64,000 bases of DNA from Escherichia coli (GTDB taxonomy: Bacteria > Pseudomonadota > Gammaproteobacteria > Enterobacterales > Enterobacteriaceae), in assembly GCF_011045215.1 (NCBI RefSeq), contig NZ_CP049201.1. The stretch is one strand, 5' to 3'. Under the pieces are notes generated by a model. It worked only from the letters and a program-made list of their open reading frames with translations, did no database searches and was not told the origin of the DNA. A program made the position numbers and the translations under genes. Shown here piece by piece: positions 6,614-50,667 of this stretch. The stretch's first letter is position 1. Every line of letters starts with the position of its first letter.

Positions 6614-7195
6614 TTATGCAGCGAGATTTTTCGCTACGAATTCCCAGTTCACCAGCGCCCAGAAGTGCTCAAGATAGCCAGGACGTGCATTGCGATAGTC
6701 GATGTAATATGCGTGTTCCCAGACATCAACGGTTAGCAGCGGAGTCGCATCGGTGGTCAGCGGAGTACCCGCGTTAGAGGTTGAAACGATAGCCAGTTTG
6801 CCATCGCTGTTTTTCACCAGCCAGGTCCAGCCAGAACCAAAGTTTTTGATCGCTGCATCAGTAAACTGAGCTTTGAAATCGGCAAAGCTGCCAAAAGATG
6901 CGGCGATAGCTTCAGCGACTTTTCCAGTCGGTTCGCCACCGGCGTTCGGTGCCAGGCAGTTCCAGTAGAAAGTATGGTTCCAGACCTGAGCTGCGTTGTT
7001 GAATACGCCACCTTCAGAGCTGCGAATAATCTCTTCCAGTGATTTACCTTCAAACGCGGTACCTTTGATCAGGTTGTTCAGGTTAGTGACATAAGTCTGA
7101 TGATGCTTGCCGTAGTGATACTCGATGGTTTCCGCAGAAATATGCGGTGCCAGAGCATCTTTAGCATATGGTAGTGCAGGTAATTCGAATGACAT
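6614..7195 (-). CDS. sodB: iron superoxide dismutase
   Basis: 193-aa [39 protein letters not shown], recognised as SodB. Confidence 0.97.
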
Positions 7196-7221
7196 TGCTA
7201 CTCTCCTTTATTATTAATTTG

Positions 7222-7251
7222 CATACGTACAATAGCCTTATTGTGCGTATG
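7222..7251 (-). promoter_or_regulatory. palindrome in sodB promoter/5' leader
   Basis: CATACGTACAATA-GCCT-TATTGTGCGTATG, 13-bp arms with 1 mismatch, 27-56 nt upstream of sodB ATG. Confidence 0.45.
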
Positions 7252-7322
7252 GATAGGGTAGCAAATTAAAAGGTGAGACAAAAGATGAACTTACCCTGTT
7301 GCCGTAACAACAGGGTAAAGTT

Positions 7323-8150
7323 TTAGCGAAGTGTTTTTGGGGTCATTACCCGGCGAGCGCCAACGTAGTGGCGCTGCCAGTAGTCTTCACTGAGAGAAGT
7401 GATTTGAATTTCCTGACCCGTACGCGGTGACTGAATAAATTTGCCGTTGCCGACATACACACCGACATGATCGGCTGTACCGCGTCCCTGAGTACGGAAA
7501 AAGACCAGGTCGCCGTTTTTCAGTTCACTACGTTCGATTGGCGCTGCATCACGCAGGTGATACATTTCATTCGCCGTACGCGGAATACGAATTTTTACCA
7601 AATCTTTATAAGCGTAATAAACCAGGCCGCTGCAATCAAAACCGGTACGCGGTGAGCTGCCACCCCAACGATATGGCTTACCAATTTGCTGCATCAGTTT
7701 ATTCATTGCCACTTTTGTGGCTTTTTGCACCTTCGCTTTGTGTGCGTCGGCAAGGGTTCCTGACGCGGCATTTTTGACTTTCACACAATGCGATTTATAG
7801 CCCTTACGTTTGGTACACTTTTCGGTAAAGCTGGCTGAGGCCGTTTTATTGACGGTATGTTTGCTGCGAGTTTTGGCGTTTTTAGAAGCGGTAATGGAAG
7901 ATTTTTTAACGGAAGAAGCGGTTTTGCTTTTGGTCGTACTTTTACTGGCGGCTTTTTTCGCTGTTTTCTGGCTGGCTTTCTGGGTCTTTTTGGTGGTTGC
8001 CGTGCTTTTCTTTTTATCTGCTTTTTTGGTGATATGAGTGGTAGCAGAACTCTCCCTGGCTTGCTTTGAAGCATGGGCCATAGGCGTTAAAGGCAGGGTG
8101 GTAAAAAGTAAAGCACAGAGCGTGATCGAAATACGGTTTATCCGCGCCAC
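7323..8150 (-). CDS. mepH: NlpC/P60 peptidoglycan DD-endopeptidase MepH
   Basis: 275-aa ORF (GTG start) with signal peptide, K/T/S-rich linker and C-terminal NlpC/P60 domain (GFDCSGLV); matches YdhO/MepH. Confidence 0.9.
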   Translation of the reverse strand: MARINRISITLCALLFTTLPLTPMAHASKQARESSATTHITKKADKKKSTATTKKTQKASQKTAKKAASKSTTKSKTASSVKKSSITASKNAKTRSKHTVNKTASASFTEKCTKRKGYKSHCVKVKNAASGTLADAHKAKVQKATKVAMNKLMQQIGKPYRWGGSSPRTGFDCSGLVYYAYKDLVKIRIPRTANEMYHLRDAAPIERSELKNGDLVFFRTQGRGTADHVGVYVGNGKFIQSPRTGQEIQITSLSEDYWQRHYVGARRVMTPKTLR

Positions 8151-8484: not shown

Positions 8485-8832
8485 ATGAGCACCACTATCG
8501 AAAAAATCCAACGCCAGATTGCTGAAAACCCGATCCTGCTGTACATGAAAGGTTCACCGAAACTGCCGAGCTGCGGTTTCTCTGCCCAGGCAGTACAGGC
8601 GCTTGCCGCATGTGGCGAACGTTTTGCCTATGTTGATATTCTGCAGAATCCGGACATTCGTGCGGAGCTGCCGAAATATGCTAACTGGCCGACCTTCCCG
8701 CAACTGTGGGTTGACGGCGAACTGGTCGGCGGTTGTGATATTGTGATCGAAATGTATCAGCGTGGCGAACTGCAGCAGCTGATCAAAGAAACTGCCGCTA
8801 AATACAAGTCTGAAGAGCCGGACGCGGAATAA
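8485..8832 (+). CDS. grxD: monothiol glutaredoxin Grx4
   Basis: 115-aa ORF with CGFS motif (PSCGFSAQ). Confidence 0.95.
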   Translation: MSTTIEKIQRQIAENPILLYMKGSPKLPSCGFSAQAVQALAACGERFAYVDILQNPDIRAELPKYANWPTFPQLWVDGELVGGCDIVIEMYQRGELQQLIKETAAKYKSEEPDAE

Positions 8833-8846
8833 TCCGTCCTGCAATA

Positions 8847-8874
8847 CTGACGGATGCGAACGGGCATCCGTCAG
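8847..8874 (+). terminator. hairpin downstream of grxD
   Basis: CTGACGGATGC-GAACGG-GCATCCGTCAG 11-bp stem directly after grxD stop; weak U-tract. Confidence 0.5.
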
Positions 8875-8882
8875 TCCTTTAT

Positions 8883-11800
8883 CTATCCCCAATCCAGCCC
8901 TTGTGGCGAACTTGAAAATCCCGCCTCACGCAGCAGCGTAAACATCGGCGTTTGCCGGACCGGTAGATCATTCACTTCTGTTAGCGTAAAGCGCAGCCGT
9001 GGTTCGCGACGCAGTGCGGTAGTCAGCGCGTGGAAAACCTCTGGGGCGAGTAATTCCTCTTTTTCCTGCCAGACCAGCATTTTTTTGCCACCTTGCGCCA
9101 GATAGAGTAACAATTTGCCGCCAGAAACGACCACCAGCGCACCCGCCCGACGCGTTGGTACCAGCGTTGCCGGATGTGCAGGCCAGGGCAGAAGATTTCC
9201 CCACACATTAGCCGGATCGTTGGCGGAGAGCGCCACTGGTGTATAGTGGCGCGTTTGCGCGGCTTGTGTCGCCAGGTCGCGCAAGCGGTCAATAGTCAGA
9301 CGTTCAGCGAATTGCGCGCCACCCAGACCTTCTACAAAACGACCTCGCATAATTCGCCCGGAGTCTTCCATACTTCGACAAAGCGTTTGCATCGATGGAA
9401 ACCCGCCAGGGATATTTTCGGCTATCACCGCCTGACGACTGATGATGCCGTAGCGGTCGAGCATATTTTCCGCCAGCGCCAGCATCCTTTCGGTATCGTT
9501 TAGTGGCTCCACCTGCAATAACGACCAGCGTCCAGCCAGATTTGGTGTGTTGTAAGATACCCGCGGCGAGACGGGTTGTGCATAGACAGGACGCCCACGA
9601 CGAGCCCGGTGACTGCGGCGAGTTGAGGTGCGTGCGTTGGAACTGCTGCGGGTGAGGGCGCGTAACGGTGCCCAAATATCGCTGGTGATGACGCCTTGCC
9701 AGACCAGCGCCCATAACGCCTCTTGCAGTGCCGAGGGATCAACCGATTCGCCGATTTTGTCGCGTATCCGTTGGCTGATTTGTTGTGCAAACCAGGCTCC
9801 TCCGTCAGCCAGAACAGCGACTATCGCTTGTTGCAGCGCCGAACGATTCGCCTGATCCGCTTCGGCGGGAGTGAACGATTCTGCAGCATATTCCTGTAGA
9901 TGCAGTGCCACCAGGCCGTCATCTTCACCCAGTTTTTTTTGCCCCGACCAGATAACCGCACCGGTTGCCAGTAATTCATCGAGCATTTCTGGCGAATAGT
10001 CGCGTACGCGGGCAGGCAGGATCTGGCTTTCCCAGAGTGAGGCGGGTAAGCCGACTCCGGCAAGCTGTTCGATTACCCGCATCACGCCATCTACGCCCTC
10101 ATAAACGCCTGGCGATGTTGAGGCAAAGAGCGCCGGGCTACCATCGGTGGCGGGTAATACGCCCTGACGTTCCAGCAGCAATCGCGCATAGGTCGTGGCT
10201 GCAACGGGACGCGTCGCTTCTCTGGCGGCTTGCAGCGAGCGCAAACGCAGACGACGAAATACTTCATCGCTCACCCAGATGTCTTGTTGCAGATTCATCA
10301 CCAGACCCTGTTCGCGCAGTTGCTGAAGCTGCTCTTCGACAATGGCAATACCGAGACTAAACTCATGAGCCAGTTGTTCAGCCGTGACCAGAGCATGAGC
10401 CCGGAGATAGCGCAGAAAGAGGTCGCGAAGCGGGTAACTGACTCTATGCAAATAAATCTCTGGCAGAGACTCTGGTAGTTGTACGCCGAGGGCATCGCGC
10501 AGCCTGGCGGCATCATCCATACAGGCAAGACGCTCCTGTCCGCTAATCATCGCCGGGAAGATTCGTTTTACTGTAAGAAGATTTTCCAGATACGACGCAA
10601 TCTCTTCACTGCTGCCTGTATGCCGTTGCGCCAGGTCTTCAACGGTCATTGGCCCCAGTTCGCGCAGCAGGTCGAACAATCCTTCTTCACCTTTCGCTCT
10701 TCTGCCAGGAGCCAGTCGTTGCAACTCTTCTTCCACCTGGCGAATGACCTGCGGGTCGAGTAATTCCCCGGATCGACCTGTCCGAGTAGATTGCGCAGTA
10801 ACTCGCTGTCCAGCGACAGTACGGATGCCCGGCGCTCTGCCAGCGGGGCGTCGCTCTGGTACATAAATTCCGCGACATAGCCGAACAATAAACTTGTGGC
10901 GAAAGGCGAGGGCGTAGTAGTCGTTACATCGGATATTTGAATTTCGCCACCGTTCAGGCGACGCATCAAACGTTCCAGTGCGGGAAGATCATAAACATCT
11001 TGCAGACATTCGCGTAGGGTTTCGAGAATGACCGGAAAATCCGGATATCCCTGAGCGATTTCCAGCAACTGACTGGCGCGCAGCCGTTGTTGCCAGAGCG
11101 GGGTGCGATGGCCCGGCGTGCGGCCCGGCATTAATAACGCCCGCGCGGCGCATTCGCGAAAACGGGCGGCGAAAAGTGCTGAGCTGCCTACCGCCTCGCG
11201 GACAATTTGCAGCAACTTTTCTGGTTCAAACAAAAAAATCGCGGCGTCGGGCAATTTACCATCAGTGTCAGGAATGCGCGCAACAATGCCGTCATCACTG
11301 GCGACCACAGACGCGTCAGCGCCCCATAGCGCATGTATTCGCCCGGCAATCGCCAGCGCCCAGGGTTCATGCACCCGTCTTCCATAGGGAGAGTGCAAAA
11401 TAATACGCCAGTCGCCAATTTCATCACGGCACCGTTCGAGGACCAGATGACGACTCCCCGGAACGATGCCCGTCGCGTTGCGCTGCTCGTCAATCAACCC
11501 CTGAATATTGGCGATCGTATTTTCTTCAGCCAGCCACGGGGGAATAGTCCCGGAAAAGAACGCGCCATCCGCCAGTAAATGAAGAAAATCGCCGATCATC
11601 TCGCCTAATTCAGCCGGACGTCCGTTACCTTCACCACGCCAGAAGGGGAGCCGGGCAGAACGACCCGGAGCAGGAGTCACAATCACCTGATCGCGGGTGA
11701 TTTGCTGTATCCGCCATGAGGTAGCGCCGAGAGTGATAATGTCGTTCACCCGCGACTCATATACCATCTCCTCATCCAGTTCACCCACCCGCCGCGAACC

Positions 11801-22195: not shown

Positions 22196-22205
22196 AATGA
22201 AGGGG

Positions 22206-22233
22206 GCGTGTGGTCAGTAACCTGACCACACGC
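22206..22233. terminator. bidirectional hairpin between convergent slyA and slyB
   Basis: GCGTGTGGTCAG-TAAC-CTGACCACACGC perfect 12-bp stem. Confidence 0.65.
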
Positions 22234-22240
22234 AAACTAT

Positions 22241-28255: not shown

Positions 28256-28290
28256 ACAAAAAAAAAGCCGCTAACGAAAAGTTAGCGGCT
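28256..28290 (-). terminator. rho-independent terminator after dtpA
   Basis: AGCCGCTAAC-GAAAA-GTTAGCGGCT with A9 on plus strand (U-run on minus-strand transcript). Confidence 0.75.
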
Positions 28291-28312
28291 TGTAAAAGAG
28301 TTTCCCTGAATT

Positions 28313-37891: not shown

Positions 37892-38932
37892 ATGAGCGAC
37901 AACATCCGTGTTGGGTTGATTGGGTATGGTTATGCGAGCAAAACCTTCCATGCGCCCCTGATTGCGGGCACGCCCGGGCTGGAACTGGCGGTTATCTCCA
38001 GCAGTGATGAAACAAAAGTAAAAGCCGACTGGCCAACGGTTACGGTTGTCTCTGAGCCGAAGCATCTGTTTAACGATCCCAACATAGACCTGATTGTCAT
38101 TCCTACACCCAACGATACCCATTTCCCGTTAGCCAAAGCGGCGCTTAAGGCGGGTAAACATGTGGTCGTTGATAAACCCTTTACCGTGACACTGTCACAA
38201 GCGCGAGAGCTGGATGCGCTGGCAAAAAGCCTGGGGCGTGTGCTGTCTGTATTCCATAACCGTCGTTGGGATAGCGATTTCTTGACGCTAAAAGGTTTGC
38301 TAGCGGAAGGCGTGCTGGGTGAAGTTGCTTACTTTGAGTCTCATTTTGACCGCTTCCGTCCGCAGGTGCGCGATCGTTGGCGTGAACAGGGCGGCCCAGG
38401 CAGCGGTATCTGGTACGATTTAGCACCACATCTTCTTGATCAGGCTATTACATTATTTGGTTTACCGGTCAGCATGACGGTGGACTTGGCACAGTTACGG
38501 CCTGGAGCGCAGTCGACCGATTATTTCCACGCCATCTTGTCCTATCCACAGCGGCGAGTCATTTTACACGGTACCATGCTGGCAGCCGCTGAGTCAGCAC
38601 GGTATATCGTGCATGGATCCCGAGGCAGTTATGTGAAATATGGCCTCGATCCACAGGAAGAACGTCTGAAAAATGGCGAGCGTCTGCCGCAGGAAGACTG
38701 GGGCTACGATATGCGTGATGGCGTACTTACCCGCGTGGAAGGTGAGGAACGTGTCGAAGAAACGCTGTTGACGGTGCCTGGGAATTATCCGGCTTACTAT
38801 GCGGCGATTCGTGATGCGTTAAATGGCGATGGTGAAAATCCGGTTCCGGCAAGCCAGGCAATCCAGGTAATGGAGTTGATTGAGCTGGGCATCGAATCCG
38901 CCAAACATCGCGCGACTTTGTGCCTTGCATGA
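37892..38932 (+). CDS. ydgJ: Gfo/Idh/MocA-family oxidoreductase YdgJ
   Basis: 346-aa frame from ATG at 37892 (MSDNIRVGLIGYGYASKTFHAPL), Rossmann motif. Confidence 0.9.
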   Translation: MSDNIRVGLIGYGYASKTFHAPLIAGTPGLELAVISSSDETKVKADWPTVTVVSEPKHLFNDPNIDLIVIPTPNDTHFPLAKAALKAGKHVVVDKPFTVTLSQARELDALAKSLGRVLSVFHNRRWDSDFLTLKGLLAEGVLGEVAYFESHFDRFRPQVRDRWREQGGPGSGIWYDLAPHLLDQAITLFGLPVSMTVDLAQLRPGAQSTDYFHAILSYPQRRVILHGTMLAAAESARYIVHGSRGSYVKYGLDPQEERLKNGERLPQEDWGYDMRDGVLTRVEGEERVEETLLTVPGNYPAYYAAIRDALNGDGENPVPASQAIQVMELIELGIESAKHRATLCLA

Positions 38933-38966
38933 AAAATGGATGGTGCAATTTGCACCATCCATTTTT
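38931..38966. terminator. bidirectional terminator between convergent ydgJ and add
   Basis: AAAAA-ATGGATGGTGC-AATTT-GCACCATCCAT-TTTTT, 11-bp stem flanked by A5 and T5. Confidence 0.75.
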
Positions 38967-50624: not shown

Positions 50625-50658
50625 AAAAAACGCCGGAGTGAAAATCCTCCGGCGTTTT
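50625..50658. terminator. bidirectional terminator between convergent uidC and ydgA
   Basis: AAAAAACGCCGGAG-TGAAAATC-CTCCGGCGTTTT. Confidence 0.75.
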
Positions 50659-50667
50659 GGCTGTGAA

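Follow-up and report, generated by a model that had tools for sequence, protein, structure and literature searches.

The inverted repeat upstream of Escherichia coli sodB likely encodes a stem-loop with which the sodB mRNA begins

The window, that is, the whole stretch of 64,000 nucleotides of E. coli DNA that was analysed, contains sodB in the neighbourhood of ydhP, mepH (ydhO), grxD and lhr, and an inverted repeat is located between mepH and the sodB start codon. The sodB-mepH stretch has a match of at least 95% identity in 5425 of 5426 complete E. coli genomes, and between the end of mepH and the sodB ATG the window does not differ from K-12 MG1655, so that experiments performed in K-12 are directly applicable to the window. 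Published coordinates were transferred via the sodB ATG of MG1655 (1735378, which equals 1733402 in an older coordinate version). The 70-bp leader plus the -10 element is shared at 100% identity by 5405 of 5425 E. coli genomes, and the lowest-ranked leader variant among the matches listed carries a 2-nt insertion beside the SD and leaves the hairpin intact. The features of the locus are as follows.

6614..7195, minus strand: sodB coding sequence, an ORF of 193 aa for Fe superoxide dismutase, which carries the name sodB in the annotation of 5425 E. coli genomes.
7190..7207 region, minus strand: SD, start codon and RyhB pairing region (SD AAGGAG at 7203-7208, ATG at 7193-7195, RyhB pairing from -12 to +5).
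7208..7224, minus strand: AU-rich stretch AUGCAAAUUAAUAAUAA, predicted to be single-stranded, directly 3' of the hairpin.
7222-7251, DNA feature without strand: inverted repeat found by a repeat search, with 13-nt arms, a 4-nt spacer and 12 of 13 arm positions (92%) complementary.
7225..7248, minus strand: predicted 5'-terminal stem-loop of the sodB mRNA, ACGCACAAUA-AGGC-UAUUGUACGU, with 9 bp and one C·A mismatch.
7248..7251, minus strand: sodB transcription start zone, at -53 in genome-wide maps and at -55/-56 in older single-gene work.
7255..7263, minus strand: extended -10 element TGCTACCCT (TGnTAnnnT), the defining bases of which are invariant in 13 Enterobacteriaceae.
7290-7319, minus strand: intrinsic terminator of mepH (ydhO), a 13-pair stem followed by a T-rich tail, also an inverted repeat.

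The mepH terminator is separate from the repeat at 7222-7251 and bounds the sodB promoter region. The position of its hairpin is constant across genera, and its stem is changed by compensatory substitutions, for example from TTACCCTGTTG/CAACAGGGTAA to CTTACCCTACAG/CTGTAGGGTAAG, as seen in the window and at the homologous positions of L001-L009.

An earlier note on this DNA had described a near-perfect 13-bp inverted repeat lying 27-56 nt upstream of the sodB start, and both its form and its place were confirmed. On the plus strand, the arm CATACGTACAATA (7222-7234) is followed by the spacer GCCT and the arm TATTGTGCGTATG (7239-7251). Since the A of the sodB ATG is located at 7195, the repeat occupies upstream positions -27 to -56; the mRNA-sense reading is CAUACGCACAAUA-AGGC-UAUUGUACGUAUG, and the arms mismatch at one position only, as C·A when read from the mRNA strand and as G·T when read from the plus strand. 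When 13-nt arms with at most 1 mismatch and a loop of 3-10 nt were sought, the 64-kb window yielded 6 distinct sites, whereas 30 Markov-1 random sequences of equal composition yielded 0.53 matches on average, and the sodB repeat is therefore not a chance expectation. The other strong repeats (13-nt arms, at most 1 mismatch) are located at 8845-8876, 22205-22234, 28263-28293, 38932-38966 and 50626-50659. The repeat at 8845-8876 is likely a bidirectional terminator, given its place between the convergent genes grxD (which ends at 8832) and lhr (which ends at 8883), and several of the others have A/T runs alongside, as is typical of terminators. Another perfect inverted repeat of 9 bp (TTAATTTGC / GCAAATTAA, at 7214-7222 and 7261-7269) brackets the main repeat. 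Its upstream copy takes in the TG of the extended -10 as well as promoter spacer sequence, and its downstream copy coincides with the start of the AU-rich leader and is not kept in other genera, so that the 9-bp repeat is probably due to chance; the two copies could pair only in mepH read-through transcripts.

The 5' end of the sodB transcript has been placed at several neighbouring positions. The leader was cloned from -56 (7251) by Urban & Vogel (PMC1807950) and transcribed in vitro from -55 (7250) by Duval et al. (PMC3858243), whereas two genome-wide maps agree on -53, that is, A7248: Kim et al. 2012 (PMC3415461 supplement) give the start 1733349, a UTR of 53 nt and upstream sequence that ends in GCTACCCTATCCATA, and Romero et al. 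2014 (PMC4681348 supplement) give FWD_(III)-1733349. Class III is defined in the latter work as "leading edge of transcription but not TAP-enriched" (PMC4681348), a label that at least accords with a structured, protected 5' terminus. No sodB entry was found in the supplementary tables published with Cappable-seq, Rend-seq and ROSE. Kim et al. 2012 (PMC3415461) also assign to sodB another start at MG1655 1732993, about 409 nt upstream, which falls inside the mepH coding region (roughly window 7604, minus strand) and hence points to read-through of the mepH terminator or to an internal promoter.

The spacing of the promoter elements is in agreement with the genome-wide maps. A simple -35/-10 scan detected no sodB promoter, which is expected because the promoter relies on an extended -10, and the upstream alignment of 13 Enterobacteriaceae (A1) has the invariant columns T12, T13, G14, T16, A17 and T21. 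The canonical +1, computed as 7 nt past the -10 hexamer, is A7248. All of the mapped starts (-56, -55 and -53) fall within the first 0-3 nt of the upstream arm and none lies downstream of the repeat, so that, whichever start applies, all of the repeat but 0-3 nt at its outer edge is transcribed. The "promoter/leader" label given earlier should thus be read almost entirely as leader, since the transcription start is preceded by no more than 0-3 bp at the outer edge of the upstream arm. With a start at 7248, the first transcribed nucleotide is also the first paired base, and with a start at 7250 or 7251 the 5' end is likewise the first paired base, of a longer stem; the choice of start changes the transcribed stem from 12-13 positions (-55/-56) to 10 (-53).

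The predicted fold of the leader was evaluated from both ends of the start zone. A hairpin beginning at 7251 has a predicted free energy of -10.8 kcal/mol (z = -3.75), and one beginning at 7248 has -6.1 kcal/mol (z = -1.1), a value that is equalled by 28 of 200 shuffled sequences and is unexceptional for its composition. From either start, the hairpin dominates the predicted ensemble, with a frequency of 0.73-0.81. It has no single-stranded 5' overhang, because the first transcribed nucleotide already belongs to the 5' arm. In the fold of the 93-nt leader, the unpaired probability from +1 to +24 is near zero, the segment from +25 to +42 (AUGCAAAUUAAUAAUAAA) is open, and the SD and AUG are placed in a weak second stem-loop. 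The latter prediction matches the "weakly structured RBS" within which the sodB SD, AAGGAG, has been described, in a leader structure model taken from Geissmann & Touati 2004 (PMC3858243). The fold of the whole 102-nt leader is uninformative (z = -0.35), the significance being limited to the local hairpin.

The conservation of this element was examined in leaders collected by a SodB-based scan with one genome per species and by a DNA-pattern scan of metagenomes, from which 64 of 120 matched stretches were discarded by a filter because they did not start with a SodB-like protein. In total, 26 distinct leaders of the E. coli type were obtained from Escherichia, Citrobacter, Enterobacter, Kluyvera, Pseudocitrobacter and others, including metagenomes, and every one of the 26 has the extended -10 and a hairpin 0-6 nt from the predicted +1. 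The stem sequences of these 26 leaders are very different, and the position of the hairpin is kept with compensatory changes in at least 9 genera. A nearly gap-free alignment of 20 of the 26 leaders (A2) allowed the pairing to be measured against controls: 70% of the cells are paired in the E. coli register, compared with 25-46% in slid registers, and double changes occur in 35 cells, compared with 16.6±3.0 after shuffling, a count that none of 500 shuffles reached. Five basal pairs, each with compensatory changes, were returned by RNAalifold on A2. The outermost pairs are poorly kept in this alignment (7251-7222 in 2 of 20 leaders, 7250-7223 in 5 of 20), and the conserved helix therefore starts at about 7248/7249, matching the -53 start; the evolutionarily conserved part of the helix is 7225..7248. 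Both this conserved helix and the invariant extended -10 agree with -53 rather than with -55/-56.

The direction of the remaining changes carries information on the strand. The non-Watson-Crick stem positions, read in the mRNA sense, comprise 11 G·U and 2 A·C, a count that omits the Enterobacter-type stems, whose basal stem holds a further U·G. Transitions from Watson-Crick pairs that were indifferent to the strand would give as many G·U as A·C, so that a ratio of 11:2 points to selection on the sense RNA. Together, the predicted ensemble, the covariation controls and the sense-strand G·U excess indicate structural selection on the RNA stem, and this comparison of leaders argues for selection on sense RNA structure rather than on a DNA operator or an antisense RNA. 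Of the two readings offered by the earlier note, that of a 5' RNA hairpin thus gained support from the transcription start, the cross-genus covariation, the variable loop (3, 4 or 6 nt across leaders) and the G·U excess, whereas that of a protein-binding site in DNA is disfavoured, as the covariation, the loop length and the G·U excess favour RNA.

The distribution of the hairpin is restricted. Yersinia, Photorhabdus, Proteus, Hafnia and remoter gamma-proteobacteria are without an E. coli-type promoter or hairpin. In sodB of the Klebsiella/Raoultella type (L082, L083, L107, L144 and similar metagenome loci, considered over about 100 nt upstream of sodB), there is a different promoter (TGTCAATG or TGTATAATG) with a short A-rich leader and no E. 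coli-type hairpin; one variant has a perfect TGTATAAT, from which the predicted leader is short and free of a hairpin. These loci retain the SD, the start codon and the RyhB site. As the Klebsiella/Raoultella leaders do without this promoter and hairpin, the element is not essential for sodB expression, and the hairpin is, as judged from the leaders compared, a lineage-specific leader feature and no universal requirement of sodB. It is confined to the promoter type of Escherichia, Citrobacter, Enterobacter and Kluyvera, and its absence from the Klebsiella type offers a natural comparison for the contribution of the hairpin.

Within the hairpin, the motif GG-YUA-UG, made up of GG in the loop and UA.UG at the top of the 3' arm, is invariant in the 20 Enterobacteriaceae leaders (A2 columns 20-27) and is located at 7230-7237 on the minus strand of the window (GGCUAUUG). 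The 5' arm opposite the motif drifts (CUGUA, CUACA and CACCG are among the examples), so that pairing alone does not explain why the motif is invariant. The UAUUG of the motif could also pair with CAAUG at the start codon. It is conceivable, albeit unlikely, that GG-YUA-UG is a specific recognition element presented by the hairpin to a protein, to an sRNA such as FnrS, or for pairing with the start-codon CAAUG. The hairpin would in that case serve regulation as well as protection of the 5' end.

The AU-rich stretch at 7208..7224, on the 3' side of the hairpin, presumably corresponds to the region of the Hfq footprint reportedly described by Geissmann & Touati 2004. The leader in the window has the attributes of one controlled by Hfq and RyhB, in that its sequence is that of K-12, the RyhB site is present and the AU-rich stretch is predicted to be open. 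Hfq binds and remodels the sodB 5' UTR (PMC2248732, PMC6443205, PMC4911921), and its binding to sodB192 RNA has been documented (PMC2248732). On the other hand, the Hfq-remodelling model for sodB is contested, and an Hfq-independent RyhB variant still represses sodB (PMC6443205). The pairing of ryhB with sodB is listed at -12~5, AGGAGAGTAGCAATGTCA (PMC3415461 supplement file 7). The repeat itself was not found to be an sRNA pairing site for RyhB, as the RyhB site at 7190-7207 does not overlap 7222-7251; because the hairpin is clear of this site, any effect that it has on RyhB access would be indirect. The FnrS-sodB region, in contrast, is listed from -37 to +20 and begins in the 3' arm of the hairpin (UUGUACGUAUG...) (PMC3415461 supplement file 7). 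Among the regions listed for RyhB and FnrS, only that of FnrS reaches the 3' arm of the repeat, and FnrS pairing, unlike RyhB pairing, might compete with the stem. RNAduplex predictions of FnrS and RyhB against the leader were set aside, as intramolecular structure is ignored and the duplexes were unrealistically long. A Fur box (19-bp GATAATGATAATCATTATC) was also sought, and the best match in 7150-7330 agrees at 10 of 19 positions, a score of at least 10 being found more than 1,500 times in the window; the absence of a Fur box fits indirect control via RyhB.

Based on these observations, the repeat is, in our assessment, quite likely the DNA image of a stem-loop that forms right at the 5' terminus of the sodB message. 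The repeat is transcribed, it is predicted to fold, and its pairing is kept by compensatory changes in the sense orientation. In the proposed mechanism, RNA polymerase would start from the extended -10 (TGCTACCCT) at A7248, or at 7250/7251 according to the older mapping, to give a leader in which the 5'-terminal hairpin may be followed by an AU-rich single strand and then by the weakly structured SD/AUG region where RyhB is expected to pair. By established knowledge, a base-paired 5' terminus would hinder both the removal of pyrophosphate by RppH and 5'-end-dependent RNase E, and this hindrance of attack at the 5' end could contribute to a high steady-state level of sodB mRNA. The work behind such a stabilizing role, on 5'-end stem-loops and 5'-end-dependent decay, is reportedly that of Emory/Belasco 1992, Mackie 1998 and Celesnik 2007. 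As the literature on the leader suggests, the hairpin and the adjacent AU-rich tract may constitute a putative Hfq site in RyhB-dependent repression, and the effect of Fur on sodB would be purely indirect, through repression of ryhB. Dubrac & Touati 2000 are said to have mapped a "palindrome plus AT-rich region" as the cis-element for Fur-dependent "positive" control of sodB; a hairpin and AU tract that serve as an Hfq site would explain this mapping. No description of the element was found in the accessible literature on the sodB palindrome. Among 68 fusions, GFP and mRNA were highest with the one that carries the sodB leader (PMC1807950), which is consistent with a hairpin that aids message stability through a protected 5' end. 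Overall, we infer two probable functions of the hairpin, namely to protect the 5' end of the mRNA and to frame the Hfq site.

The palindrome could instead act as DNA, as a symmetric operator over the sodB +1 for a dimeric regulator such as Fur, IHF or H-NS. Weak binding of Fur and effects of IHF and H-NS at sodB have reportedly been described (Dubrac & Touati 2000/2002), a near-perfect dyad does span the start site, and GG.TA.TG within it is invariant across 20 leaders. However, the best Fur-box match is at the background level of the window, the spacing of the half-sites is 3, 4 or 6 nt across genera, and the basal stems are swapped for unrelated complementary sequences in other genera. The dyad symmetry is moreover broken by changes that yield G·U in the mRNA sense, and the outermost 2 bp of the dyad are unconserved. 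An operator is hence very unlikely, the comparative data favouring an RNA role over a DNA-operator role. The repeat might also function in an antisense transcript that starts near 7220 on the plus strand and would carry it as a 5' hairpin. Here, the repeat folds into a perfect 13-bp helix of -16.6 kcal/mol (z = -3.7), a -10-like TATTAT (7209-7214) precedes the putative start, and a reverse-strand start, 1733377, equivalent to window ~7220, is listed by Romero et al. (PMC4681348). This start nevertheless belongs to Class II (TAP-enriched, no coverage step), which the same authors ascribe partly to background transcription (PMC4681348), and it is missing from the list of Kim et al. 2012, so that it probably reflects pervasive transcription. 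Furthermore, the non-Watson-Crick positions of other genera that are G·U in the sodB sense become A·C in the antisense, and a functional antisense hairpin is accordingly highly improbable.

Among the remaining alternatives, a part in an RNA thermometer like that of the Yersinia sodB 5' UTR (RF02775), which would occlude the ribosome-binding site in the cold, is extremely improbable, the least probable of all. RF02775 is the only Rfam match in the region (7166-7270, minus strand, E = 0.0003-0.0014), and the Yersinia sodB leader melts thermoresponsively in vitro; the effect in vivo is marginal even in Yersinia (PMC10358904). The match scores 31.4 bits where the gathering threshold is 98, its similarity does not extend beyond the SD and coding sequence, and several match positions, including the anti-SD stretch, are flagged as non-standard pairs. 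In addition, the E. coli hairpin is located in an unaligned insert of the match and does not touch the SD, and the Yersinia leaders have no hairpin or promoter in common with E. coli. A functionless chance palindrome or terminator remnant is very improbable. The modest stability of the RNA from -53 (z = -1.1) and the Klebsiella clade, which does without the hairpin, would be in keeping with it, but only 0.53 such repeats are expected per 64 kb, the position and compensatory changes extend across at least 9 genera, and the repeat is near-invariant in 5,425 E. coli genomes. A remnant of a terminator is contradicted by the lack of a U-tract, the sequence after the repeat being CAAAUUAAUAA in the minus-strand reading and GATAGGG in the plus-strand reading; the scan for intrinsic terminators returned only that of mepH at 7290-7319, a separate hairpin. 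The repeat is thus best read as the 5'-terminal stem-loop of the sodB mRNA.

Several known systems are comparable to this stem-loop. The ompA-type 5' stem-loops block RppH and 5'-end-dependent RNase E. Like them, the sodB hairpin begins at +1 without a 5' overhang on an abundant mRNA, but its stem is short and AU-rich, with a predicted -6 to -11 kcal/mol, and stabilization by it is putative. The arrangement also resembles the Hfq module in which an A/U-rich single strand is located beside a stem-loop, as AUGCAAAUUAAUAAUAA, for which an unpaired state is predicted, directly follows the sodB hairpin; the importance of Hfq remodelling at sodB is, however, disputed (PMC6443205), and the part of the hairpin in Hfq binding is putative. 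The Yersinia SodB_thermometer (RF02775) comes from the leader of the same gene and has a similar SD and start region, whereas E. coli scores 31 versus 98 bits, the anti-SD helix is unconserved, and the promoter and upstream leader differ. The closest system is the sodB leader of E. coli K-12, which is the same locus with an identical sequence and, from -55/-56 to the ATG, the model RyhB/Hfq target. The 5' hairpin of this much-studied leader is already known, and the observation in the earlier note is correct but ordinary; the leader is a textbook target of RyhB and Hfq, the hairpin is part of the standard construct, and its confirmation adds no new biology. There is no structural difference from the K-12 leader, and the genome-wide +1 at -53 shortens the transcribed stem by 2-3 pairs and means different "native" 5' end nucleotides for in vitro work.
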